Source: a bacterium
Lineage (GTDB): Bacteria > Krumholzibacteriota > Krumholzibacteriia > JACNKJ01
Length of the DNA stretch: 64,000 nucleotides
Reading direction: 5' to 3'
NCBI GenBank assembly: GCA_024231955.1
Contig: JAAEPZ010000538.1
Span: forward strand, 766,551-830,550
Under the pieces are notes generated by a model. It was not told the origin of the DNA and made no database searches. It worked only from the letters and a program-made list of their open reading frames with translations. Positions 1,297 to 15,686 of this stretch are shown here, piece after piece (positions within the stretch are counted from its first letter, which is position 1; each line of letters opens with the position of its first letter). Position numbers and translations under genes: made by a program.

Positions 1297-3006
1297 CTAT
1301 TTGAGAAGGACGAGTTTGGCCCTGTCCGAGCCGGAGGGTCCCGCCAGCCGCAACAGGTACAGACCGCTGGGCAGGTTGTGGCCGTTGTCGTCCCGCCCGC
1401 TCCACGTCAGTTGGAAATCGCCTGCGGCCTGATAGCCGTCGCGCAGTCGGCGCACCTCGCGCCCGGTGAGATCGAAAATCTCGAGAGCGATTCGACCCGC
1501 AGCCGGATGACGCACGGAGATCGTCGTCGTCGGGTTGAATGGGTTGGGGTGGATGTTGAGAAGCGGGGTTGCCGCGGGGACGGGATTTTCGGCGATGCCG
1601 GTCGGATTGAAGGTGAGGTCACCCTCGAAGAAGTAGTCGTCCAGCCAGCCCTGCATCTGTGCGCGTGAACCTGTTTTTTGCATATACACACCGGTGGATA
1701 TCCGCAGACGCCTGAAATCGGGACTGCTGTAGGGGTCCTCGAAACAGAAGTACTGATAGCCACGTTCGTCGGTGACGCGAAATTCAATGGCTGGGGGCAT
1801 GCTGCTCTGACTCACCTGGGCCCGGAGTGGCGCAGCGGCCGGGATACCGTCATGGGTCTGATCGAATATGCAGTCGCCGGCGATACAGATCTGACAGCGG
1901 ATCGCGATGCAGTCCGGCAGATTCGGGTCGGACAGCAGGCTCATCCTGATCAGATCATTCCGACCGGAGAGTTCGAGAGCGGTGATTCCGGCATTGTCTC
2001 CCGGCACCTGCGCGTCCGCCGCGAAGCCAATGCGCCAGTTCGGAGTATCACCCACGGGGCCGACGTTGAGATCCCAACTGGTCGCGTCGGTCGCGTTGCC
2101 GGACGAAGAGAAGACCATGGCATTGGCGGCGGGAGACCAGTCGAGGATCTCGTCCACAGACGCATTGACGAGGGAGAAATCATCGGAGCCATGGATGAAG
2201 TTGATCATGTGATCGCCCTCAAGCCCCAGCCAGGTCGTGGTCGCCCGGAGCCATTCTCCGCGCAGTGCGGGGTCGCCTATGGCCTCCGGCATCGCACTCT
2301 GGAAGTGGATCGCCTTGGGATAGTAGGTGTCGGTCGACACATGGCCACTCTGCCCGCCTGCGCCAGACGAACCCATGATGAAGCTGTAGGCATTCGGCAT
2401 GGGGAAAAGGTGGTCGCTCAGCATGTTCGTAAAGTCGGGCAAAGTATCGAAACTCAGGTTCGTCGGGGGGAGCGGCTCGAAGAAGAAGCAGTTCAGCGGG
2501 AGGAGGACATTGGTTTCATTGTCCAGCTGGTAATCCTCAACCGAAAGCACTTGATGTATGAAATTCTCGACTTCGGGATCGGACCCATTCAGTGAGTTGA
2601 GAATCCCCTGCCCCAGCAGCACGACCTTGCCGCCGAGGGCGAGATAGTCGCGCAACAGATTGCGCTCATCGAGCGAGAGGCTGTGCTCATCCTCGGCGGC
2701 GCAGTTCCAGATGATCAACGGGTACTGACTCAAGTCGGCCAGGGTCGGCAATTGGAGATCATCGGGTGTGGTCTGGATCTCGTAATAGTCGTACTCGATA
2801 CCCGCCGCGAGAAGGGCGTCTTCGATCCACATCTCGTAGCCTGGATCCTCAATGTAGCTCCGCCCGCGCTGGATCGGGTCCCAGTCATCATCAAAGAAAC
2901 ACAGTTTGGAGGAGACAGCGGCGCTTGTCGGTGAGGTTAACATGATCACAAGTGCGATAGCCAACAGCTGCGGCAATGCAAATCGGATGCGGCATAGACG
3001 ATACAT
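1297..3006 (-). CDS. Secreted protein with a C-terminal Por_Secre_tail (T9SS type-A-like / FlgD-Ig-like) sorting domain. The N-terminal domain is of unknown function and may be alpha/beta ThuA-like.
   Basis: Signal-peptide-like N-terminus MYRLCRIRFALPQLLAIALVIMLTSPTSAAV when started at the internal Met (3006). The C-terminus NIHPNPFNPTTTISV...SGLYLLRLAG...AKLVLLK matches the PNPFNP CTD motif. Confidence 0.65.
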   Translation of the reverse strand: MYRLCRIRFALPQLLAIALVIMLTSPTSAAVSSKLCFFDDDWDPIQRGRSYIEDPGYEMWIEDALLAAGIEYDYYEIQTTPDDLQLPTLADLSQYPLIIWNCAAEDEHSLSLDERNLLRDYLALGGKVVLLGQGILNSLNGSDPEVENFIHQVLSVEDYQLDNETNVLLPLNCFFFEPLPPTNLSFDTLPDFTNMLSDHLFPMPNAYSFIMGSSGAGGQSGHVSTDTYYPKAIHFQSAMPEAIGDPALRGEWLRATTTWLGLEGDHMINFIHGSDDFSLVNASVDEILDWSPAANAMVFSSSGNATDATSWDLNVGPVGDTPNWRIGFAADAQVPGDNAGITALELSGRNDLIRMSLLSDPNLPDCIAIRCQICIAGDCIFDQTHDGIPAAAPLRAQVSQSSMPPAIEFRVTDERGYQYFCFEDPYSSPDFRRLRISTGVYMQKTGSRAQMQGWLDDYFFEGDLTFNPTGIAENPVPAATPLLNIHPNPFNPTTTISVRHPAAGRIALEIFDLTGREVRRLRDGYQAAGDFQLTWSGRDDNGHNLPSGLYLLRLAGPSGSDRAKLVLLK

Positions 3007-3180
3007 GATATGTCCTCGATATCTGCAAGTTGGTGAACTATATGTAATTATATCATCTCCGAAATATGGGGTCAATGTCCCTGCTTGCGATGACCACGCT
3101 GAGATTGTAGAGTCTACCTGTTGGACCAGCAGGCTGCTGAAACGATACGACCCGATTTCAAGATATGAGGATGTAGAAAC

Positions 3181-5250
3181 GTGCGTGAGAATTTGATCGA
3201 CAAAGTGGAGATTCCCGAAGTCAGCGAACCCGAAGAGGGCATCACGGGGAAGTTCAAGGTTCTATTGTTCATCATCAGTAGCGTTTTGGCCCTGGTCATG
3301 CGGCTGCTCTATCTGATTCCCCTCAGGGGGAAGACCCTGTTTGATGTGCCGATGCGCGATTCCATCGTGTATGTGGACAAGGCCAGGGAGATTCTGGACA
3401 CCAGTTTCTGGGGGAGTGGCGTCAGTTTTCACAGTTCACCCCTCTATCCCTATTTCCTGGCGCTGATGATGGGTGAGGGTGATGAACCGGGTTTGTGGGT
3501 AGTGCGGGTGATTCAGGCGGTGCTCTCGGCTCTGACCGTCGGCTTTCTGGCTCTGATCGGCACGCGTCTTTTCGGCCGAGGTGCGGGTATCGCGACGGCG
3601 ATCCTGGCCATCTTCTATGCGCCGTTTCTCTTTTACAGTGGTGAACTGCTGGAGATCACCCTGACGCTCTTCTGCCTTGTGATTGCGGTCTGGCTGGGCA
3701 CGGACGAGAAACCCGATCCGAAAAAACTCCTGGGGATCGGGTTATTCCTTGGACTTGCAGCTGTCGGCAAACCGAACCTTCTGCTGCTGACGCCGGTTTT
3801 CCTGATCGGTATCGGCTTCCTCCGGCCCCTCGGACAACCGCAAGCCTGGCCCTGGAAACGGGGACTTATACTGGTCCTGGGTGTGGTTCTGGCGATAGCG
3901 CCATTCACCCTGAGGAATCGCATTGTGGGTGGCGACTGGGTACTGATCAGCAGCAACGGCGGCATCAACTTCTTCATCGGCAACAATCCCAACGCCAGCG
4001 GGGGCTTCTGGGTGCCGTCGAGCATGCAGCAGGATCTGGAGAACTCCAGCCGTCTGTTCCCCGAGAAGGTTTACGAGCGTGAGATGAAGCCGTCCGAGGC
4101 CAGCAGATTCTGGGCCGAACGCGCTTTTCACTATTACAGAACCCAACCGGGTGACGCAGCCAGGAAGAATCTGCGCAAGCTGGGGTTGTTGCTGGGCAGT
4201 TATGAGATCCCCAACCACTACAGCATCTACTTCTTCAAGGCGAATTACTCGCCTCTGTTGAGGGTGCCGCTGGTTTGGTATTCGATGGTGCTCCCGTTCG
4301 CCATGCTCGGGTTGGTTTTCGGCATGCGCCGCAAGGGCGCGGTCAGGGTCGCGGGTTGGAGCCTGATTGTTGCCGCGGCCAGTGTTGTGCTCTTCTTCGT
4401 CACCAGCCGGTACCGTCTGCCCATGTTGATCTGGATGCTCCCCTTCGCCGGCGCCGGGATCATGATCCTGCTGCGAATCCTGCAGCGACGTCGGTGGCGG
4501 TTGCTGCCGTTACCCGCGATCATTATCGTGGCCAGTCTGGTGATCCTCAACCTGCCGCTTGTGGCCCACAAGGATTTCCATGACGACTGGATCACCCTCG
4601 GCACCTATTGGGCCGGGCAGGAGAATTGGGAGAAATCGGCTCAGTACAATTCCCAGGCCCTCCGTGAAAAGAATATGAATTCGGCCGTCGCCTGGCAGAA
4701 TCTGGGCTACGCCTACTTCCGCCTGTCCCGGGACGAAAATGATCTCGACATGGCTGAGGAGTGCTTGTGGAAGGCGATCAAACTCGACCAGACCTTCGGC
4801 TATGCCTATGGGAACCTGGCCAATTTCTACTATGCCATGAACCGCATCGAGATCGCCAAGAAGTGCCTGGAGCGGGCATTCCTCCTGGATCCCAGTCTCC
4901 AGATCAAGATGAAGACCCTGCACAGCTACATCGGACCGAGAATGGCCACGTTGAATGAGCGCAACGAGTCCTTCATGAAGCGTCTGGAGGATAGTCTTGC
5001 CGACGATCCGGGCAACCTCGATCTCCACATCGACAAGGCTCACGCTCTGGCCATGCAGCTGAATCGGCTGGATGATGCTCTTGCCGTTCTGGATGCCCTG
5101 CCGTCCGATGTGGTGCAGAGGTTCCCCACTATCATTGAGCGGGAGAAAAAACTGAAGGAGCGGATCGCCAGGTCGAAAAAGTATCTGCCGATCCTGGACA
5201 CGCCGTTGCCTGCGCCCGCTCTGGCTAATCCTCGGACTCAGCAGCCTTGA
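3181..5250 (+). CDS. Membrane GT-C family glycosyltransferase (ArnT/PMT-like, GT39/83) fused to C-terminal TPR repeats.
   Basis: Multiple N-terminal TM helices with a PMT_2/ArnT-like loop pattern (FYAPFLFYSGELLEI, GLAAVGKPNLLLL). The C-terminal approximately 200 aa carry TPR-like repeats (AWQNLGYAYFRLSRDENDLDMAEECLWKAIKLD, GNLANFYYAMNRIEIAKKCLERAFLLDP). Apparent GTG start. Confidence 0.7.
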   Translation: MRENLIDKVEIPEVSEPEEGITGKFKVLLFIISSVLALVMRLLYLIPLRGKTLFDVPMRDSIVYVDKAREILDTSFWGSGVSFHSSPLYPYFLALMMGEGDEPGLWVVRVIQAVLSALTVGFLALIGTRLFGRGAGIATAILAIFYAPFLFYSGELLEITLTLFCLVIAVWLGTDEKPDPKKLLGIGLFLGLAAVGKPNLLLLTPVFLIGIGFLRPLGQPQAWPWKRGLILVLGVVLAIAPFTLRNRIVGGDWVLISSNGGINFFIGNNPNASGGFWVPSSMQQDLENSSRLFPEKVYEREMKPSEASRFWAERAFHYYRTQPGDAARKNLRKLGLLLGSYEIPNHYSIYFFKANYSPLLRVPLVWYSMVLPFAMLGLVFGMRRKGAVRVAGWSLIVAAASVVLFFVTSRYRLPMLIWMLPFAGAGIMILLRILQRRRWRLLPLPAIIIVASLVILNLPLVAHKDFHDDWITLGTYWAGQENWEKSAQYNSQALREKNMNSAVAWQNLGYAYFRLSRDENDLDMAEECLWKAIKLDQTFGYAYGNLANFYYAMNRIEIAKKCLERAFLLDPSLQIKMKTLHSYIGPRMATLNERNESFMKRLEDSLADDPGNLDLHIDKAHALAMQLNRLDDALAVLDALPSDVVQRFPTIIEREKKLKERIARSKKYLPILDTPLPAPALANPRTQQP

Positions 5251-5764
5251 TCGATTCGAACGTGTAGAAAGTACAGCCGGGTTGTCGCCAGGTCTCACGC
5301 GGCAGCCCGGCTTTTTGGCAGAGTTCGGCGAGATATTCCTCAAGATCCCATCCCCACTCGGTCGCCACCTCCGGCAGGAACAGCCCGCGCTGGCTCCCCC
5401 TCTCTATTATCAGGCCATGTTTCCCGATCTCAACCGCGGAGAGATCCTCGATCAGCTCGGGCGGAGTCAGAATGCTCAGGCTGATGTGGACACCCGGGAG
5501 TTCATCCGCCGTCAGGGGGGGGAAGCGGGGATCATTGATGGCGGCGCTCAGGGTCAGGTCGCGGAGCGTCCTGTCGAGGGATGGTTGCCGCTCCACGGTG
5601 CCGATGCAACCACGCAGCCGACGATTGATCCGCAGGGTGACGAAGAGGCCGTCAATGGGCAGATCTTCGTCGGCGGTCAACCCGGGTCCGCCGATCTCCC
5701 AGTCCTCCCCGGCCAACCATTGTTCCAGAGTCCATCTGGCCAGTCCGGGCAACTTCGTCAACAT
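5225..5764 (-). CDS. AMMECR1 domain protein.
   Basis: Conserved AMMECR1 block LRGCIGTV...GLIIERGSQRGLFLPEVA. The internal Met (MLTKLPGLARW) is the likely start. The opposite-strand ORF 5282..5932 has no motifs. Confidence 0.7.
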   Translation of the reverse strand: MLTKLPGLARWTLEQWLAGEDWEIGGPGLTADEDLPIDGLFVTLRINRRLRGCIGTVERQPSLDRTLRDLTLSAAINDPRFPPLTADELPGVHISLSILTPPELIEDLSAVEIGKHGLIIERGSQRGLFLPEVATEWGWDLEEYLAELCQKAGLPRETWRQPGCTFYTFESIKAAESED

Positions 5765-6265
5765 TGTCGAATCCAAATTATACCTCCAGGGCCGGGAATT
5801 CACCGACAGGCTAGCATGAGTTGCACTTCGGGTCACCGTAGAATCGGGTCATTCTGGATGGCCTGGACCACGGACAGGAATCCTGAAGACCTGATTCGGC
5901 TCATATGGGGTCAAATCCCCCTGTGCGTGTGAATCTGCGGGGCGTGGAGTTGAGGTGCGCTGTATCCCGCTGCCCCCTGGAGCGGCCTGCCGTGTTTCAT
6001 CGCGATTTCGGACGCTGAGTGAAATGCCCCACTGTAATCGGAATATACCCCAGCCTCTCAAAATATCTCGGATTCGGCAGGTTTTTCAATCGCTGCAATT
6101 CGCGTAATGAAATGACGCAAAGGATAGTAATCAAAGAAGATGGCCCGGTTTCGGGCATCTTGCGTTGCCGCCTGCAACCAACTTGGTGCCGCCATGGGGG
6201 GAGGACATGGCCCAGGGTCTCAAGAGTGCTATAGAGGCGGTGAACTCAATCCGAAGGAGCGGTTA

Positions 6266-6442
6266 TGTTGAAGAGCTTGACACTTGCGCTGATGGTTTCC
6301 CTGGTCTCTTTTTATGGTTTTGGCCCCCTGTCGACTTTGCTCAAAGCCGATATGCAGGCTCAGTTGAATACCGTCGTTGAAGTTTCCAATGATACTGGTG
6401 ATCCGAGTGGGATTGGCACCGATGGTACTCTGAAGCCTTAAT
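6266..6442 (+). CDS. Small (58 aa) putative secreted peptide. It is not in the supplied ORF track because it is under 60 aa.
   Basis: AGGAG lies 6 nt upstream of the ATG. The predicted N-terminus MLKSLTLALMVSLVSFYGFGPLSTLLKA is signal-peptide-like. The gene is followed immediately by a strong intrinsic terminator. It competes with the overlapping unannotatable ORF 6165..6380. Confidence 0.35.
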
Positions 6443-6494
6443 TCCTCAACATACTCCTCCTTTGGTTGAGTTTCTCCTTAATTCCCTTCCGGTG

Positions 6495-6528
6495 CGGACC
6501 CCGTCTTGACGGGGTCCGTTCTTCTTAT
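6495..6528 (+). terminator. Rho-independent terminator.
   Basis: GGACCCCG-tcttga-CGGGGTCC is a perfect 8-bp GC stem followed by gTTCTTCTTaT. Confidence 0.5.
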
Positions 6529-6584
6529 CTAGTATGTCCTGGAAGTCATTTCAGGATGTTGTGATGGGAGGCAATTCCGGATGA

Positions 6585-9440
6585 GTGTCCATGTCCGCCA
6601 GTAGCCCTTTTCCCGTTCGTCTGACGCAGATCGCCGAGGGCGCCACCGCGCGTGTTTTCGAATCCCGTGACCATCTGGGGCTGCCGGTCGCACTCAAGGT
6701 CGCCAGGGCCTCTCGCGATAACCGGACGCTGAAGCGCGAGGCGGAGATGGCGGCCCTTCTGCGGCATCCCGCCCTGTTGCGCATCCTGACGCAGGGGCAG
6801 GGTGATGATGGCCTGGCCTGGCTGATCATGCCCCTCCTCCCAGGCCGCACACTTGCGGACTGGACGGGTGCCGACAGCGAGCTGCTCGACCATCTAGCGC
6901 CTGTGGCCGATGCCCTCGACCTGCTGCATCATCTGGGTTGGGGACATGCCGACCTCAAACCCGAAAATCTGCTGCTGGCCACCGATACCTCCCGTTACCC
7001 ACTGTTGCTCGGCGATCTCGGCCTGGTGTCACGGTTGAACGCACGTGCCGGAGGTGGGAGCCCTGCCTATCTGTCCCCGCGTCGTCTCGCGGATGCACCG
7101 CTGACCTGGCGGGACGATCTCCATAGTTTCGCCGTTCTCACGTTCGAAAAACTGGCGGGGGTTCTGCCCTACAACCACGATACGGGTGATGCCCTGCTGG
7201 CCGATATCCGTCAGGGGGGACTCCGGGACCTCTCCCGTTTCCGTCCTGAACTGTCGACCGAACTCGGGCGCTTCTTCACTGCCACCCTTCTGGGCGATCA
7301 TGGCGCGACCAGCGTGATGACCTGGCTGGATGAGCTGCGCTCCCACTTCGGTCAGACGCCCGCGCCCCGCTGTCTTTTCGGTCGCGAGATACCGGAGGAG
7401 ATCCTCCATGGTTCCGATCTCCAGAGGGCGTTGACCTCCGCCCTCTATTCAGTCTCACAGACATCCGTTCAGCCGGGTCACGAGGAGTTGATCGTGATCG
7501 AGGAGTTGGCCGGCGCCGCGCCGACCCATCTGCGGATCTGTATCGAGTTCCTGCTGTCCAATCAGTGGTTGCGGGATGATGTGGGGTGGGGGCGTTTCCG
7601 TGAACCACCAGCAGTCTGGCGGTCGGAGTTGGAGCTGTTGCTGAGAGGGGGGGGCGACTGCGCCGTCACCGACCTCTCGGATCGACTGGAGGAGCTGGGT
7701 CTGAAGCCGACTGACTGTGATGAGGTATGGACTCAGGTCTGGAATGACAATTCCGAGCGGCTTGACCGACGTCTGCAGCTTGTCGGCGTAGCGCTTTCCG
7801 CAGAGCGTTTCGACTGGTTGCTCGCCTTGCCGGGCGATCATTTCTTCGTTATTGCCGATCGTGGTCCCCGGGAGACGCAGTTGGAGGTGATTAGCCAGGC
7901 GGCGATGGGGGATATCCCGTCCGAGGTGAATGCCCGCATCCGAATCTGGGAGGTCATTCGGCAGATCAGGGAGGATAATCTGGTTGCCGCCCGGACCGAG
8001 TTCTGGGCGATAGAGGAGCATCTGGATCTGGAGAGCAGCGGTGAGCTGAGCCGACTTCTGACCTATCAATTACTGGATGCAGGTCGTGTTGAGGAGGGGT
8101 TCGCGTTTCTCAGTCGCTGGCGGGAGGGGAGGAGCGCTCAACTCGCCGGGACTGAACTGGAGATACGGTTGGCCGCGAGAGAGATTACGGCTTATGCGCA
8201 ATACGGGGATGTTGAGACTGCAAGAGCGCGCGCGAAAACCTATGGGGACGCTTATGCAGGCCGCAGAGGTGAGTGGTTCTTATATATGGCTCTAGCCAAT
8301 ATTGCTACAGAGCAACGTGATATTGCTGAGTCATTAGCGCATACAAAACATGCTCTTGCTGGAGTTCAACGGGATAAGGGTGATCAGCGTATCATGATCC
8401 ATTTAATGCTCTTTCTTGCCTCGGGGTACACCTTGTGGGGGCGACAAGAGTATATGGACAGTGTTCCTGAGCTGATTGACAACGCGTTCAGTTATGCGAA
8501 TGACCTGGGTGATTCATGGTTAATATTGGAATGCCTGTCAACCAAGGGCCTTTGGGAAATGAATCATGGTAGCTTCCGAAGCTCTGAAGAATATTTTCTA
8601 CAGACGGTGAAGTTGGCGAAAGATAGCGGGCAACTCAATCGATCACCATACTATCTTTCCAATTTGGCTTTATCTGTTTTTTACCAAGGTGATTACTCCC
8701 GTATTATCTCTCTCAGTGACCAAATTCGTGATAGTCTGATTGAAGAGCAAACCCTTAAGAGCGTGCTGTCTTCCAAGGAAGTGTTATGCTTGTTCTCAAT
8801 TGCATTTGGAGATCTCCTTGATGCGGATGTAATGATTGAAGAGGCAATGCTTGCTGCCACCTCATCCAGTTCTGAACAAGCTCAAGCGAGCTTTCTATTG
8901 TTGCGTGCTATGATTGCCAGTTATCGGCTTCAGAATACAGATGCACAAAGAGATATTCTGGCATCCAAAAAGATCCATGAGGAGGCTGGGGCCAGCAGTG
9001 ATGTAATGTATTGCAGGATGATGAATTATGAATTGCAACCTGTTGATTGCCAGGATGTTGATAAGATTATCGAAGTAATTGAATTCTTCACGGCTATTGA
9101 ACGTCGTCTTCACCTTCCCCACGCCTGGCGTCTGTTGGCGCGGCATCTCAGATCGACCGGTGATCTTGAGGGTGCCGCTCAAGCTCTGACCAATGGATTT
9201 GATGTTGCCGGGGAGATGGGTAATCCTGAGGAGATCTGGCCGCTGCATGTCGAATCCTCACACCTCGCCCTGGCCGGCGACAGCAGGGGGGCGGCGCGGA
9301 CGGAACTGACTGCGGCGGCTCAGATCCTGCGCGATCTGTCCCTGCACTTCCCCGAGGGTGCAGCCCGTGATCAGTTCCTGTCTCGACGGGACAGGGCGGA
9401 TGTTCTCCAGAGACTGCAGGCACTTGGGAGGGTTGAATGA
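6585..9440 (+). CDS. Hanks-type Ser/Thr protein kinase with a long C-terminal TPR/helical-repeat region.
   Basis: N-terminal kinase motifs VALKVAR (VAIK-like), HADLKPENLLL (catalytic loop, non-RD variant), DLGL (DFG-like) and SPAYLSPRR (APE-like). About 650 aa of helical repeats follow. Confidence 0.8.
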   Translation: MSMSASSPFPVRLTQIAEGATARVFESRDHLGLPVALKVARASRDNRTLKREAEMAALLRHPALLRILTQGQGDDGLAWLIMPLLPGRTLADWTGADSELLDHLAPVADALDLLHHLGWGHADLKPENLLLATDTSRYPLLLGDLGLVSRLNARAGGGSPAYLSPRRLADAPLTWRDDLHSFAVLTFEKLAGVLPYNHDTGDALLADIRQGGLRDLSRFRPELSTELGRFFTATLLGDHGATSVMTWLDELRSHFGQTPAPRCLFGREIPEEILHGSDLQRALTSALYSVSQTSVQPGHEELIVIEELAGAAPTHLRICIEFLLSNQWLRDDVGWGRFREPPAVWRSELELLLRGGGDCAVTDLSDRLEELGLKPTDCDEVWTQVWNDNSERLDRRLQLVGVALSAERFDWLLALPGDHFFVIADRGPRETQLEVISQAAMGDIPSEVNARIRIWEVIRQIREDNLVAARTEFWAIEEHLDLESSGELSRLLTYQLLDAGRVEEGFAFLSRWREGRSAQLAGTELEIRLAAREITAYAQYGDVETARARAKTYGDAYAGRRGEWFLYMALANIATEQRDIAESLAHTKHALAGVQRDKGDQRIMIHLMLFLASGYTLWGRQEYMDSVPELIDNAFSYANDLGDSWLILECLSTKGLWEMNHGSFRSSEEYFLQTVKLAKDSGQLNRSPYYLSNLALSVFYQGDYSRIISLSDQIRDSLIEEQTLKSVLSSKEVLCLFSIAFGDLLDADVMIEEAMLAATSSSSEQAQASFLLLRAMIASYRLQNTDAQRDILASKKIHEEAGASSDVMYCRMMNYELQPVDCQDVDKIIEVIEFFTAIERRLHLPHAWRLLARHLRSTGDLEGAAQALTNGFDVAGEMGNPEEIWPLHVESSHLALAGDSRGAARTELTAAAQILRDLSLHFPEGAARDQFLSRRDRADVLQRLQALGRVE

Positions 9441-11821: not shown

Positions 11822-12805
11822 ATGATCCCCATCGACAAACTTCAGGCGACCGGCGCTTTTCTGTTGGCTCAAGAGCGGGTTCGTCTTCTGCTCCACAAAC
11901 ATCCCGATGGCGATACCCTTGGTTCCAGCCTGGCTCTGGCGCGCTTCCTCAAGCAGAAGGGGATGGATATTGGGGTCTTTGGTCCGTTTCCGCGAGCGGC
12001 AAAGTTCGATTTTTTGCCGGGCTTCGAGGAGGTCGAGTCCGGTGTAGACGAGATCCGCAATCCCGAATATGCCGATACGCTCTACGTGGTTGTCGATAGT
12101 ACGGGGGTGGATCGGACGGGCTTCGAGGAGGGGGACTTCAAACGGCTGTTGCGCCTCGATCATCATATCGGGGGCAGTCGGTATAGCGAGTACGATCTGG
12201 TGGATACCTCCGCCGGAGCGGCGGCTCTGATTATCAGCGATCTCCTCCATGCCCTGGACAAGGATGGCATAGACGCCGGCACCGCCACCTGCCTCTACAC
12301 CGGTCTGATGACCGATACCGGCGGTTTCCGCTACACCAATACCAACAGCCATGTATTCCACTCCGTGGCTCGTCTGGTCGACCAGGGGGCGAGCCCGGCT
12401 GAGGTCGCCACGATGGTCTATGACCGTCGGAATCCCTCCTATCTGCTGCTGCTCAAGCGGGCGCTGGAATCAATCGAGTTCCATGCCGAAGGCCGCCTGG
12501 CCATGTTGACGCTCACCGCCGCGGGTCTTCCCGAGGAGGCGTTGCTCTATTTTGGGGAGGATGATTTCATCAACCTGCCGCGCGGCCTTGCCCAGGTGGA
12601 GGTTGTCGTCCAGATGAAGCTGGTCCCCGGTGAAAACTGGAAAGTCGGCTTCCGGGCCAAAGGCAAGGTCAATGTGCAGGAGATCGCCACCCATTTCGGT
12701 GGTGGAGGACACTTCTCGGCAGCAGGTTGCGAGATCGATGGCGAGTTGGAGGAGGTTCGACACCGTGTGCTGACGCGGGTCCTTGAGGCTATCTCAGCAT
12801 CTTGA
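11822..12805 (+). CDS. nrnA: DHH-family phosphoesterase, NrnA-like (oligoribonuclease / pAp phosphatase).
   Basis: DHH motifs HKHPDGDTLGS and LDHHIGG, plus a DHHA1-like C-terminus with GGGH (FGGGGHFSAAG). Confidence 0.75.
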   Translation: MIPIDKLQATGAFLLAQERVRLLLHKHPDGDTLGSSLALARFLKQKGMDIGVFGPFPRAAKFDFLPGFEEVESGVDEIRNPEYADTLYVVVDSTGVDRTGFEEGDFKRLLRLDHHIGGSRYSEYDLVDTSAGAAALIISDLLHALDKDGIDAGTATCLYTGLMTDTGGFRYTNTNSHVFHSVARLVDQGASPAEVATMVYDRRNPSYLLLLKRALESIEFHAEGRLAMLTLTAAGLPEEALLYFGEDDFINLPRGLAQVEVVVQMKLVPGENWKVGFRAKGKVNVQEIATHFGGGGHFSAAGCEIDGELEEVRHRVLTRVLEAISAS

Positions 12806-12941
12806 TCCCGGCCGGTTGCCTGCAGGCTATCTCCTTTATGGATTCGGATAGTGATCTATTGCTCCATATTGTCGTCAATCGTTGACACTGTGGTGCCGAT
12901 AAGTTACAATCTGGAGACCATGTCTACAGGAGAGTACCTCA

Positions 12942-14708
12942 GTGTCTAAGGATTCGGGAAACGACAAGCCGACATTGCCCAAACGATCACCGGCTCTCGA
13001 GAAGCTGCTGGGGCGTTCCGTCGATTCCTCGCCAAAAACAGCCACATCCGGCGGCGCCGCCGCCACACCAGCCCCAATTACCGAGACCAATGCCGCTCCC
13101 AAACCCGGACAATCCGCTTCCGGCAGCAGTGTCTGGGAGCTTGAGACTCTCCGCAATCGCCTGAAGGAGACTCAGGAGGAGATCGCTCGGCTCCGCATTA
13201 TTGATGACTCTCATAGCCGTTTGCTCACCCTTCTCGAGGCGAACGCCGATTTTCTGGTCTCGGCGGATCCCGCCAGGCTTCCGGATCGGATTCTCCAGAT
13301 CGGGCTGGACCTGGTCGGCGCGGAGCGCGCCGCGTTCTTCCGCATCAGCAAGGAGGGGGCGCTGAATCTGGGACAGGTGCGACCTGAAGGTGCAACTTTC
13401 AGCTCGATCAGCCACTCGGTCGTACGGGACGCGCTTCTGGGGAAACGGACGATCGTTCATCAGGGACAGTCCGCCCAGGTGGGTGCCGAGCGGCAGAGCA
13501 TTATTGACCTGGATCTGGAAACAGTAGTCGCTACGCCACTTATGACTGCCGAACGTCAACTGGGTATCCTTTATCTGGACGGTTCGCGCGTTGGTGCTTT
13601 TACCGCCGCCGATGTTCCTGTGCTTGAGATCTTCACCCGTCTCGCAGCTGCGGCAATGGTTCGCCTCGAGGAGTTGCAGGAGGTGCGTGAGGAGAAGAGT
13701 GAGCTCAAACAGGAGAACATGGAGCTGAAAAGCGCCCTGAGTGACCGCACCCGTTTCGGTAATATTCTGGCGGCGAGTGCCGGCATGAAGAACGTGATCG
13801 AGCAGCTCAGACGGATGTGCCGCTATCGCTCCACCGTGCGGATATTCGGGGAGACCGGTACGGGTAAGGAGTTGATTGCCAGGGCTCTGCACAACGAAAG
13901 CGCCTGGGCGCGGCGGCCATTCGTTACCATCAACTGTGGTGCAATCCCTGAAGCGCTGCTTGAGTCCGAGCTGTTTGGACACGAGAAGGGCGCCTTTACC
14001 GGTGCCGATACGGCCAAGGCCGGGCTCTTCGAGCAGGCCGACGGCGGAAGCCTGTTTCTGGATGAGATCGGTGATATGCCCGCCATGTTGCAGGTCAAAC
14101 TGCTTCGGGTCTTGGAGAATGGCGAGGTGCGCCGCGTCGGGGGGAATCGGGTGAGTCGTGTCGATGTGAGGGTTATCGCTGCATCGCACCGCAACCTGGA
14201 GGAGAGGGTTCGGGATGGGGAGTTCCGGGAGGATCTGTTCTATCGACTCAATGTCCTCACCGTCAGTCTGCCGCCGTTGCGGGAGCGTCCCGAGGATGTT
14301 GAGCTTCTTGCCGAGTATTTTCTGAAGAGATACGGGGAGAAGATGGGTCAGGACTGCCGCGGCTTCACACCGGCGGCGATCGGACGTTTGCAATCGGAGA
14401 CCTGGCCCGGCAACGTGAGGCAGCTCGAGAAGTGCGTTGAGAGGAGCCTGGCTCACTGGGAGGGGCGACGGATCATGGAGGAGCACCAACTGATGCTCGA
14501 CGCAGGCCCCCTCACCGATCGACCGGATCTGCAGGCGACCCAGTCAAGTCCGGATGAGAGTCTGAAGCAGTTCGTGACCAGGATGGAGAAAGACAAGATC
14601 GGTCAGGCGCTGAAACAGGCGAAGGGCCGTAAAACCACTGCCGCAGCCAGACTTGGCATCTCCCGGCAGTACCTACATCGCAAGATCAAGGATCTGGAGC
14701 TCGAATAG
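12942..14708 (+). CDS. Sigma-54-dependent transcriptional activator (disordered N-term, GAF sensor, AAA+ sigma-54 interaction domain, Fis-type HTH).
   Basis: Walker A GETGTGKELIARALH, GAFTGA motif ESELFGHEKGAFTGA, Walker B GGSLFLDEIGDM, arginine finger region, C-terminal HTH AAARLGISRQYLHRKIK. GAF-like block upstream. Confidence 0.85.
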   Translation: MSKDSGNDKPTLPKRSPALEKLLGRSVDSSPKTATSGGAAATPAPITETNAAPKPGQSASGSSVWELETLRNRLKETQEEIARLRIIDDSHSRLLTLLEANADFLVSADPARLPDRILQIGLDLVGAERAAFFRISKEGALNLGQVRPEGATFSSISHSVVRDALLGKRTIVHQGQSAQVGAERQSIIDLDLETVVATPLMTAERQLGILYLDGSRVGAFTAADVPVLEIFTRLAAAAMVRLEELQEVREEKSELKQENMELKSALSDRTRFGNILAASAGMKNVIEQLRRMCRYRSTVRIFGETGTGKELIARALHNESAWARRPFVTINCGAIPEALLESELFGHEKGAFTGADTAKAGLFEQADGGSLFLDEIGDMPAMLQVKLLRVLENGEVRRVGGNRVSRVDVRVIAASHRNLEERVRDGEFREDLFYRLNVLTVSLPPLRERPEDVELLAEYFLKRYGEKMGQDCRGFTPAAIGRLQSETWPGNVRQLEKCVERSLAHWEGRRIMEEHQLMLDAGPLTDRPDLQATQSSPDESLKQFVTRMEKDKIGQALKQAKGRKTTAAARLGISRQYLHRKIKDLELE

Positions 14709-14945: not shown

Positions 14946-14996
14946 ATAAGGCCAGTGTCAGCTCACTACAAAATAACGGAAATCGGGAGGTTTCAA

Positions 14997-15074
14997 ATGT
15001 TGATCTTCAGTCTGTTCGCCAGCGCTTCCGTCTTCACAGCTTTCCTGACCAAGACCTGGTGGGACATTTCCTAA
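14997..15074 (+). CDS. 25-aa hydrophobic peptide, copy 1 of a tandem paralogous array.
   Basis: MLIFSLFASASVFTAFLTKTWWDIS. GGGAGG lies 7 nt upstream. The copies differ mainly by synonymous or conservative changes. Confidence 0.5.
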   Translation: MLIFSLFASASVFTAFLTKTWWDIS

Positions 15075-15128
15075 GCACAGTTAACGTGGGCTGCGGCCCG
15101 GTACCCGAGTAAAACAGGAGAAGTTAAA

Positions 15129-15206
15129 ATGTTGATTTTCAGTCTGTTCGCAACCGCTTCGATCTTCACAGCTTTCTTGACCAAGACCTGGTGGAACATC
15201 GGTTAG
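15129..15206 (+). CDS. 25-aa hydrophobic peptide, copy 2.
   Basis: MLIFSLFATASIFTAFLTKTWWNIG. AGGAGAAG RBS. Followed by a GCGGGCC-tgag-GGCCCGC hairpin. Confidence 0.5.
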   Translation: MLIFSLFATASIFTAFLTKTWWNIG

Positions 15207-15266
15207 ATGACTGTATGGCGGGCCTGAGGGCCCGCAATACTTGACCACATCATTAGGAGGTTTCTC

Positions 15267-15344
15267 ATGTTGATTTTCAGTCTGTTCGCAACCGCTTCGA
15301 TCTTCACAGCTTTCCTGACCAAAACCTGGTGGGATCACAGCTAA
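15267..15344 (+). CDS. 25-aa hydrophobic peptide, copy 3.
   Basis: MLIFSLFATASIFTAFLTKTWWDHS. AGGAGG RBS. Followed by a CGCGGC-tgaa-GCCGCG hairpin. Confidence 0.5.
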   Translation: MLIFSLFATASIFTAFLTKTWWDHS

Positions 15345-15435: not shown

Positions 15436-15630
15436 ACTGTCTGAAAAATAACCCAGTGGTATGGTGCCCAGATAGATGGAATTCGCTTCATCAAATCCAT
15501 TTGATTCGAGGAGGCGAAGACGGGTTGGGAAGGAGCCCGACCTCGTCCGGCGAAAGCCGGGAATCTGAAATGTAGAGGCTCGTGATGATGGAGAACCGGC
15601 CTTTCCTTGTTGCAGGGAAAGGTCGGGCTC

Positions 15631-15686
15631 TTGTGTTGCTGTATTTGTGACTTGAAACTTGTGTTGCTGTATTTGTGACTTGAAAC
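15631..15686. repeat. Perfect tandem direct repeat, 2 x 28 bp (TTGTGTTGCTGTATTTGTGACTTGAAAC).
   Basis: Read directly from the sequence. It lies immediately upstream of a small ORF. There are no spacers, so it is not a CRISPR array. Confidence 0.8.

Follow-up and report, generated by a model that had tools for sequence, protein, structure and literature searches.

Among mosaic genes, the pbp genes are classic cases. Lateral transfer of gene fragments, with exchange inside a coding sequence, is common (Chan et al. 2009; PMC2817436; PMC2639706). Two further described phenomena are relevant here, namely clusters of rare codons whose positions are conserved among homologues (Chaney et al. 2017; PMC5438181), and a heterogeneity of the GC content at third codon positions (GC3) within genomes which is linked to recombination; a recombination-linked, GC-favouring force operates in bacteria and has been modelled as biased gene conversion (Lassalle et al. 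2015; PMC4450053). In this study, we analyse a low-GC block within a serine/threonine protein kinase gene located on a 64,000-nucleotide stretch of a Krumholzibacteriota genome (contig JAAEPZ010000538.1, positions 766,551 to 830,550 of the forward strand), designated the window in the following. The block is a real, in-frame part of the gene and represents the normal, orthologous middle of the helical-repeat sensor domain rather than an insert, and it is most likely no recent foreign import. We favour, with a probability of about 0.45, the reading that it is a maintained, in-place AT-ward trough which acts at the nucleotide level, is specific for gene and position, and is extreme in the lineage of the window.

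The block shares with mosaic genes that an orthologous segment, in frame and collinear, differs in composition and divergence from its flanks, that its edges lie in conserved sequence, and that the specificity-determining region is affected. Unlike mosaic genes, it has no known donor and shows no topological incongruence, and comparable dips occur in seven of eight deep lineages, which a single transfer would not predict. The block resembles the rare-codon clusters of Chaney et al. (2017; PMC5438181) in that rarity and not identity of codons appears to recur at homologous positions on differing backgrounds, inside a structural domain; unlike these clusters, the stretches considered here comprise 120-300 codons, involve first and second positions as well as amino acids, and vary in extent between clades. 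The likeness to recombination-linked heterogeneity (PMC4450053) lies in a within-genome variation of GC3 that is independent of selection on codon usage, in the lower GC content expected where recombination is rare, and in AT-biased mutation, under which unprotected sites decay toward A/T, whereas the effects analysed by Lassalle et al. are differences between genes and the trough of 30-52 points described here is confined to part of one gene.

The low-GC block and its limits

The features of the gene on which the argument rests are listed below with their positions in the window (ORF, open reading frame; aa, amino acids; ML, maximum likelihood; TPR, tetratricopeptide repeat).

6585..9440, plus strand: Ser/Thr protein kinase gene, 951 aa, defined by the ORF call and a Pfam Pkinase match
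7920..9431, plus strand: uninterrupted alpha-helical repeat (TPR-like) solenoid, aa 446-949, helices H446 to H949 as assigned by DSSP on an AlphaFold (AF2) model
8052..9227, plus strand: possible full tract of atypical synonymous codons, from ML on synonymous codon choice alone; GC3 change-points 8178-9227
8259..8291, plus strand: conserved motif GRRGEWFLYMA at the left edge of the block, aa 559-569, with G559, R560, G562, W564 and A569 invariant
8277..9101, plus strand: low-GC block (all-base change-points), codons 565-839, from a two-breakpoint ML fit, the AF2 structure and the identity profile
9114..9143, plus strand: conserved motif LPHAWRLLAR at the right edge of the block, aa 844-853, with L844, P845, L850 and R853 invariant and A847 and W848 nearly so

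The earlier note on this DNA, which was made from the sequence alone, had described an abrupt fall in GC content with A/T-ending codons inside an ORF that stays open, and these descriptions were borne out by sliding-window GC and GC3 profiles and by codon usage (GC3 z about -5); the string that it quoted lies at 8280-8330. In the ML fit, the segment 8277-9101 has a GC content of 0.430 inside versus 0.625 outside, with twice the log-likelihood (lnL) difference amounting to 90. In 150-nt windows, the GC content is 0.41-0.47 from about 8300 to 9124, compared with 0.57-0.69 through most of the gene, and has returned to 0.59-0.67 by 9200. The decrease concerns all three codon positions, the GC contents of the first, second and third positions (GC1/GC2/GC3) over 8286-9122 being 0.53/0.36/0.42 versus 0.71/0.50/0.69 in the host-like part of the gene. 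The genome GC contents implied by the three positions of the block are mutually consistent (0.47/0.44/0.41), and those implied by the rest of the gene are 0.60-0.65. The block is the 837-nt stretch with the lowest GC content of the entire 64 kb (0.432, z = -4.6); the next lowest (0.476) is intergenic, and the remaining low-GC runs of the window are wholly or largely non-coding gaps.

In 100-codon windows, GC3 of the block is 0.40-0.46 (z -4 to -5.7), versus 0.763 +/- 0.063 with a minimum of 0.54 in the host reference, which comprised 1230 such windows from 29 genes. Codon choice is inverted between block and host for Ile-ATT (0.68/0.15), Gln-CAA (0.73/0.21), Leu-CTG (0.17/0.48) and Ala-GCT (0.42/0.11). 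At fourfold degenerate sites, the base frequencies are A 0.23, C 0.18, G 0.22 and T 0.37 in the block versus A 0.08, C 0.43, G 0.36 and T 0.12 in the host, the pyrimidine content being 0.55 in both, as expected of C-to-T and G-to-A transitions acting on host-like codons. Within 279 codons, not a single in-frame stop occurs, as opposed to 11-28 stops in each of the five other frames (P about 6e-8 under a mononucleotide model), so the block is coding sequence whose frame is kept open by selection.

The compositional discontinuity has definable breakpoints, at 8277 and 9101 when all bases are considered and at 8052 (support 8037-8067) and 9227 (support 9224-9233) for synonymous codons. The composition switches at codons 561-565, i.e. 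within the motif GRRGEWFLYMA. The shoulders 8052-8276 and 9102-9227 show GC3 deficits of 16-20 points at aa 510-540 and 18-30 points at aa 840-870, but are individually non-significant, their scores being 8.5 and 7.2 lnL, while segments arising by chance in host genes reach up to 16.8. The left shoulder (8000-8280, plus strand) appears as a third compositional zone with a GC skew of +0.29 to +0.36 and a GC3 of 0.53-0.67; its codons are rare in the host yet not A/T-ending (GGG, AGA, AGG), and its codon-usage score is as atypical as that of the block. The block shows no enrichment of promoter-like sites, and Rfam contained no matching family. A tblastn search of the block against the 64-kb window returned only the block itself, with no paralogue, silent cassette or repeat copy, and a target of a diversity-generating retroelement was rejected as well, no template repeat being present in the window and the only match that involves the block being 25 nt long and at chance level.

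Orthologous kinases and conservation of the block

In BLASTP searches, 12 full-length orthologues of 938-1068 aa were found in metagenome-assembled genomes (MAGs) assigned to Krumholzibacteriota or 'Latescibacteria', with overall identities of 34-44%, except for P0013, which showed 28% identity over 69% of the query. The protein of the window (P0001) is a 100% match to MCP4547940.1, annotated as 'MAG: protein kinase [bacterium]' from an unclassified bacterial MAG, where its gene lies on a contig of 856,869 bp, and is the only member of its 90% cluster. The kinase, a conserved gene present in single copy, occupies loci that are positional orthologues. The gene order is PMT_2-type glycosyltransferase, AMMECR1, small ORF and kinase: the small ORF is followed by the kinase in every locus examined, the PMT_2 gene was present upstream wherever that stretch was captured, and AMMECR1 lies between them in seven of eight loci, the exception being L008 with a GDPD gene instead. 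Further downstream, five loci carry genes for a DHH phosphoesterase and a sigma-54 activator. In the locus L012 (CAVOFT010000001.1, a 3.6-Mb long-read MAG contig), the orthologous kinase at about 2908-5973 is split, its open frame stopping at 4419 and the matches going on in other frames at 4499-4774 and 4780-5973; this is either a frameshifted pseudogene or a result of long-read indel errors.

Over the block (aa 568-846), the alignment with the 12 orthologues is free of gaps. An insertion, be it an intein, an intron, a mobile element or an inserted domain, is therefore ruled out by the collinearity, and the corresponding proposal of the earlier note was not upheld, the 12 orthologues being of equal length. 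The encoded segment extends from helix H564 to helix H837 and forms about seven hairpins in the middle of the solenoid, predicted by AF2 with a local confidence (pLDDT) mostly above 90; the assignment to a helical-repeat region was thus correct.

In all comparisons, the block is the least conserved segment of the family, and it covers the most variable, presumably partner-binding part of the protein; a ligand- or partner-binding surface had been presumed in the earlier note as well. The identity of the window protein to its orthologues is 16-32% in the block, compared with 42-58% in the kinase domain and 37-54% in the C-terminal flank; between P0002 and P0003, the values are 45% in the block and 53-58% in the flanks. 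The window block has lost only one of the 11 invariant residues and still conforms in 46 of 54 hydrophobic-core columns. It has kept 62% of the residues that are mostly conserved there, compared with at least 88% in its peers, a fall to the level of the family outgroup which is seen in the block only. By our own classification of the listed substitutions, 10 of the 15 replacements at such sites shift the sequence toward A/T, and no shift toward G/C occurs among them. The block groups with P0002, P0003 and P0004 in partitioned neighbour-joining trees just as the flanks do, without topological incongruence.

GC3 troughs in the orthologous kinases

GC3 was determined in 60-codon windows, with the genes next to each kinase serving as its reference. 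In total GC, the profiles of the orthologues dip only mildly, and the troughs become apparent once this comparison is made. They are as follows, the deficit being the maximum of the 60-codon windows.

P0001 (window): deficit 0.43
P0002: minimum GC3 0.62, neighbours 0.91, about 250 codons, deficit 0.30
P0003: minimum 0.58, neighbours 0.94 (z -9.4), aa ~560-660, deficit 0.37
P0004, a close relative of P0003: minimum 0.42-0.47, neighbours 0.88-0.94, about 240 codons, deficit 0.52 (P0004/P0224)
P0005: minimum 0.52, neighbours 0.90, aa 391-560 and 601-690, deficit 0.40
P0007: average about 0.72, minimum 0.58, neighbours 0.94, nearly whole gene with the last ~120 codons at background, deficit 0.37
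P0011: average 0.74, minimum 0.60, neighbours 0.89, whole gene, deficit 0.31
P0013: no deficit region, genome GC3 0.71, deficit 0.17

A deficit of at least 0.30 is reached by the kinase in seven of eight lineages, versus two of 75 neighbouring genes. One of these two encodes the sigma-54 activator of locus L005, which is called as two overlapping ORFs (11881-13146 and 13095-13610) and has a deficit of 0.40; it may reflect a frameshift or a miscalled frame instead of a true trough. The adjacent paralogous AAA16-TPR kinase shows no trough, which rules out a general property of TPR kinases in these genomes. The trough of the window is the widest and among the deepest examples of those that this kinase family carries in most lineages, and the widest trough is found where background GC3 is lowest and A/T-ending codons are accordingly least rare.

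Within the subclade, the troughs of the window, P0002, P0003 and P0004 start near aa 455-490 and overlap at aa ~540-690. The deeply diverged P0005 and P0007 have a common right limit at about aa 800 despite saturated synonymous sites, so either the state is maintained or the events recur. The troughs of the relatives are not assembly artefacts, since the gene DNA of P0002 is identical in three samples and assemblies from JGI, ENA and Logan all show the P0004 trough. From flanks to block, GC1+2 changes by -0.142 (window), -0.118 (P0003) and -0.089 (P0002); because this shift is common to relatives, the match of the window block to a '44% GC genome' is no evidence of foreign residence, and the window stands out in width and GC3 depth only, not at first and second positions. 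The observation that the earlier note had named as speaking against recent acquisition, orthologues carrying the same segment with the same composition, was thus largely made, with GC3 deficits of 0.30-0.52 and the overlap of the four closest troughs, their extents being different.

Properties of the troughs

Weaker codon bias at poorly conserved sites is ruled out as a cause, as GC3 of the block is low in every conservation class: in the window, the values for high, medium and low conservation are 0.50/0.26/0.48 in the block and 0.73/0.71/0.69 outside. Variability as such is ruled out by aa 330-450, a region which is equally variable and has a normal GC3 in the window, P0002 and P0003. A low GC3 that is regional and not tied to site conservation speaks for a pressure at the nucleotide level. 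An ongoing local hypermutation is unsupported: P0004 and P0224, which differ by 0.5% at the nucleotide level, have only one of their 14 differences in the trough, which makes up 26% of the gene, and members of the cluster have no amino-acid differences at aa 481-700. The trough is stable in these near-identical variants. As a separate observation, 10 of the 14 differences between the two (loci L089 and L090) fall within kinase codons 286-365, i.e. the linker and the alpha/beta module; this cluster is separate from the trough and resembles a hot spot or a short tract of recombination.

At codons for the same amino acid, synonymous differences between P0003 and P0004 reach 0.45-0.62 at aa 501-700 versus 0.11-0.32 elsewhere, with one exceptional bin (0.42 at aa 351-400), and they are strongly directional, A/T being on the P0004 side. 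In the shared core (aa 601-650), both genes have a GC3 near 0.5, and codons are A/T-ending in both at 9 positions compared with 8 expected by chance. This pattern fits sites that have been freed from a GC-ward constraint, fits imports too, and argues against selection on individual rare codons. A donor of the P0004 patch would have had 64-88% identity to P0003, where P0002 has only 28-48%, and would thus be a close relative, yet one with a GC3 of about 0.45 instead of 0.94.

Search for a donor

When 1.84 billion representative proteins were searched exhaustively by phmmer, with only the block as query, the protein itself was returned, then known orthologues at the same positions, and nothing closer. 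The best non-self matches were P0002 (33%, aa 575-852) and P0004 (31%, aa 561-833), and only three proteins had E values below 1e-10. The search for the donor lineage that the earlier note had suggested hence led back to the orthologues at 31-33%. With the full-length protein, no match between 100% and 44% identity was found. A scan of the GTDB species genomes, which do not include the window's own genome, with the family alignment yielded four family loci, all GC-rich and none with a closer block; JGI metagenome contigs, scanned with aa 520-900, and plasmids and phages, searched by tblastn, contained nothing. About 18 family clusters are known among 15 billion proteins, all of them GC-rich or GARP-rich, and neither a donor nor an AT-rich member was found among them. 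The additional members recovered from weaker matches of the exhaustive search are all rich in Gly, Ala, Arg and Pro (GARP) and poor in Phe, Tyr, Met, Ile, Asn and Lys (FYMINK), and therefore come from GC-rich lineages.

Origin of the low-GC block

In the reading that we favour, a GC-favouring force, either GC-biased gene conversion or selection, would keep third positions at 0.76-0.95 in these GC-rich genomes but would act weakly on the trough segment, which would lie near the AT-biased mutational equilibrium at a GC3 of about 0.4-0.6. With a pressure at the nucleotide level, first and second positions and the amino-acid make-up would also be pushed A/T-ward where the protein tolerates it. In the lineage of the window, the trough would have come to span the entire variable part of the solenoid between the two invariant motifs, and AT-driven replacements would have made its sensor segment the most diverged of the family, visible as a long branch, with fold and invariant residues retained. 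Candidate causes of the weak GC pressure are that the specificity segment is cold for recombination or that slowly translated or AT-rich sequence is selected for; both this cause and the in-place origin of the extra width in the window are inferred, and the recurrence, gene specificity and stability of the troughs are observed.

Several observations weigh against an origin in place. The terminal protein branch of the window in the block is about three times as long as that of P0002 (0.99 vs 0.33), compared with 0.45 vs 0.38 in the flanks, and P0004 possesses a deep trough without extra protein divergence. GC at fourfold sites of the block (0.40) is below the intergenic GC of the window (about 0.49-0.52), and the equally variable region aa 330-450 has a normal GC3. 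In total GC, the block has sharp edges that coincide with conserved motifs, which a crossover would give as well. The extent of the trough varies greatly between clades, from 120 codons to nearly the whole gene, and the positional overlap involves only three independent subclade lineages and is non-significant alone (p about 0.25, a rough estimate). Moreover, we know of no mechanism that would generate, in place, a deficit of 30-50 GC3 points along 120-300 codons, and the recombination-associated differences between genes studied by Lassalle and colleagues are said to be much smaller.

Some of these observations are better explained by a mosaic gene, in which homeologous recombination exchanged, in frame, about 0.8-1.2 kb of the sensor region for the corresponding segment of a kinase of the same family from an unsampled relative of about 41-47% GC, with crossovers in the flanking conserved motifs; the troughs of the relatives would in that case go back to other events, older or smaller, in a segment under diversifying selection. 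A replacement of this kind best accounts for the three-fold, block-limited excess of the branch, the placement of the edges in motifs and the fourfold-site GC below the intergenic level, and the first and last of these are also what still speaks for the replacement part of the original proposal. It is further in line with the mutual agreement of the genome GC contents implied by the three codon positions, with a codon usage sharply unlike that of the host (ATT, CAA, CTG), with a low GC3 that reaches into the conserved motifs on either side, where the protein is unaltered, with the outgroup-level retention of mostly conserved residues in the block only, with synonymous differences between P0003 and P0004 that are 2-3 times higher in the patch, and with a short-term rate in the trough which is not elevated and suggests episodic change. 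Breakpoints within ORFs have been reported for 19.6% of orthologue sets (PMC2817436) and may fall inside domains (PMC2639706). We nevertheless regard a mosaic origin, the main alternative, as less likely than a trough maintained in place, because the 1.84 billion representatives provided nothing closer than 33%, the 90% clusters no other match of high identity, and plasmids, phages and JGI metagenome contigs nothing at all, the roughly 18 family clusters are without an AT-rich candidate, block and flanks do not differ in topology, relatives share the GC1+2 shift, and the GC3 profile has sloping shoulders instead of clean steps. As the same gene is a GC3 outlier in seven of eight lineages, imports from never-sampled donors would have to be repeated, and the donor of P0004 would be a close relative and AT-rich at the same time. 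A single ancient import inherited by all lineages is ruled out, as synonymous sites are saturated and amelioration would have erased it, and recurrent imports are implausible, as AT-rich donors, none of them sampled, would be required for at least seven lineages. The claim of a recent replacement from a compositionally foreign donor was thus not demonstrated and is weakened by the absence of a donor, the grouping within the same subclade and the first- and second-position drop common to relatives.

It is improbable that the trough is itself a selected feature at the nucleotide or translation level, i.e. a long stretch of A/T-ending rare codons or of AT-rich DNA or mRNA that slows elongation for co-translational folding of the repeats or keeps the kinase level low. 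The specificity of the trough for position and gene over deep lineages, independent of background GC3, its stability in near-identical variants and its absence from the paralogous TPR kinase would agree with selection, as would the occurrence of the widest trough at the lowest background GC3. That homologues can conserve codon rarity at specific positions has been documented (PMC5438181). On the other hand, P0003 and P0004 show no site-specific conservation of A/T-ending codons in their shared core, selection for codon rarity does not predict the shifts at first and second positions and in amino-acid composition, the extent ranges from 120 codons to almost the whole gene, and neither promoter-like enrichment nor an Rfam match was detected in the block. 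The rare-codon clusters described by Chaney and colleagues are also reportedly far shorter than 120-300 codons. Still much less probable is an assembly chimera, in which reads from the orthologue of a co-occurring AT-rich relative were joined at two shared k-mers. The protein is present in a single record (MCP4547940.1) for which no independent assembly was found, and switching twice between orthologues would of itself preserve frame and collinearity. For such a chimera to arise, sequences that differ in codon usage and have GC contents of 62% and 43% would have to share identical k-mers at both junctions. In addition, the GC3 shoulders slope and are not abrupt, an AT-rich member of the family is not known, and comparable troughs of relatives are reproduced in independent assemblies, so that an artefact is not needed.

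Architecture of the kinase

The protein consists of an N-terminal Hanks-type kinase domain, a small alpha/beta module and the C-terminal helical-repeat solenoid. The kinase features are listed below.

6621..7364, plus strand: kinase catalytic domain, aa 13-260, host-like composition, GC3 0.65-0.80
6945..6968, plus strand: catalytic loop HADLKPEN (non-RD), aa 121-128, with H121, D123, L124, K125 and N128 invariant in 13 members
7014..7022, plus strand: DLG replacing DFG, aa 144-146, with D144, L145 and G146 invariant in the family

GC3 of the kinase domain is normal compared with host genes (z between -0.4 and -1.8). The match to Pfam Pkinase (PF00069) covers aa 13-210 (E = 2e-20, 73.7 bits versus a cut-off of 31.7), which places the domain among the Hanks-type kinases, and the closest solved folds found by Foldseek are kinase domains, those of CaMKII and PknB being matched with E values of about 1e-10 to 1e-9. 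The VAIK lysine (K38), the alphaC glutamate (E52), D123 of the HxD motif, N128 of the catalytic loop and the DFG aspartate (D144) are invariant in the 13 family members. The Gly-rich loop is degenerate, G19 being the sole invariant glycine there. Position 122 is A or G (HAD/HGD) and in none of the 13 members R, so that the non-RD state, which had been recognised together with HADLKPEN and DLG at the outset, extends to the whole family.

The AF2 model was calculated from a 13-sequence alignment and has a mean pLDDT of 86.3. It contains stacked helix-turn-helix hairpins throughout the solenoid, with pLDDT mostly 85-97. TPR profiles of Pfam remained below their gathering scores (TPR_2, 22.2 vs 27 bits; TPR_12, 19.2 vs 30.1 bits) and covered one repeat only, aa 565-621; orthologues have precomputed matches to PF13424 and PF17874, mostly faint or weak. 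Kinase domain and solenoid are joined by a predicted helix-helix-helix-strand-strand-helix module (winged-helix-like; aa 276-354, 7410-7646, plus strand) which has no Pfam annotation. No transmembrane segment is evident, the maximum of the Kyte-Doolittle profile (19-residue window) being 1.82 within a repeat helix.

PknG of Mycobacterium tuberculosis (PDB 2pzi) is likewise cytoplasmic, with a Ser/Thr kinase domain followed by a helical-repeat domain, and was aligned by Foldseek over 753 columns, but the fit is poor (TM score 0.21-0.29, root-mean-square deviation 24 A, 15% identity). The window kinase differs from PknG in a much longer solenoid (about 500 aa), an extra alpha/beta module between kinase and repeats and a non-RD catalytic loop. 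PknG-like membership was rejected, as the kinase domain begins at aa 13, leaving no N-terminal domain, and Pfam detected no rubredoxin-like domain.

Upstream small ORF, hairpin and other features of the window

Two conserved elements precede the kinase gene.

6265..6441, plus strand: conserved small upstream ORF, 58 aa in the window, with a signal-peptide-like N-terminus and a Pro-stop end
6494..6529, plus strand: terminator-like hairpin GCGGACCCCGTC-TTGA-CGGGGTCCGT with a T-rich tail, between small ORF and kinase start

The small ORF is present in every orthologous locus, has 46-58 aa and lies 82-143 nt upstream of the kinase (L001, 9724-9876; L004, 9712-9861; L005, 5744-5890; L006, 5748-5891; L007, 5745-5891; L008, 5778-5918; L089, 197-346; L090, 212-361). 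The N-terminus has the pattern M-KSLT.AL...L.S..GFG, the C-terminal half is variable, and in seven of eight lineages the ORF ends with Pro-stop (TLKP*, TLIP*, GMIP*, GLDP*, TQP*, STP*). Its GC content is about 10 points below that of the locus in every lineage except L008, and as this offset is found in the orthologous loci, a co-transfer of the small ORF with the block is ruled out. The product may serve as a leader or monitoring peptide, or else be secreted and act as a partner peptide for the TPR kinase.

The hairpin follows the consensus GG(G/A)C(C/T)CCGTC-TTGA-CGG(G/A)G(C/T)CC with a subsequent T-run and is preceded by a pyrimidine-rich CCTCC tract. It occurs at the same position in L001, L004, L005, L006, L007, L008 and L090; stem and loop are nearly invariant in the eight loci despite kinases of only 35-58% identity, with compensatory pairs in the window and P0002. 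Rfam has no matching family. The hairpin may be an attenuator which controls the kinase. A more far-reaching proposal, which we put forward tentatively and consider doubtful, is that a phylum-wide trough of 30-52 GC3 points is actively maintained in place, either as a recombination-cold specificity cassette, in which the GC-favouring force breaks down locally, or as a very long selected slow-translation or AT-rich element, in a gene belonging to a conserved regulatory unit with a Pro-stop leader ORF and a sequence-invariant terminator or attenuator hairpin.

Elsewhere in the window, the sigma-54 activator gene (12942..14708) is separated from the ATP synthase operon, which starts at about 16036, by 2 kb of non-coding DNA with a GC content of 0.50. 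This gap contains three tandem repeats (14986-15334, plus strand) with a period of 132-138 nt and 84-90% identity, the unit encoding a hydrophobic ORF of 25-39 aa, MLIFSLFA(S/T)AS(V/I)FTAFLTKTWW. The same gap harbours a perfect 28-nt tandem duplication, CTTGTGTTGCTGTATTTGTGACTTGAAA, in two copies at 15630-15685 (plus strand).

Implications

To our knowledge, it has not been described that a single gene shows a trough of 30-52 GC3 points which recurs at one position over deep lineages of a phylum, with no AT-rich relative known; the pattern lies between a conserved rare-codon cluster and recombination-linked GC heterogeneity. For the compositional detection of horizontal transfer, the kinase gene calls for caution, as a block that looks foreign by textbook standards recurs in orthologues at the same place. 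If the block was replaced, the gene would be an ordinary mosaic gene in an uncultured phylum, and a conserved kinase would have had its surface for partner or ligand binding swapped. If the trough is maintained in place, it would represent a natural experiment on what keeps GC3 high in GC-rich bacteria, with the same protein segment encoded at a GC3 of about 0.4-0.6 within genomes at 0.76-0.95 in several independent lineages.

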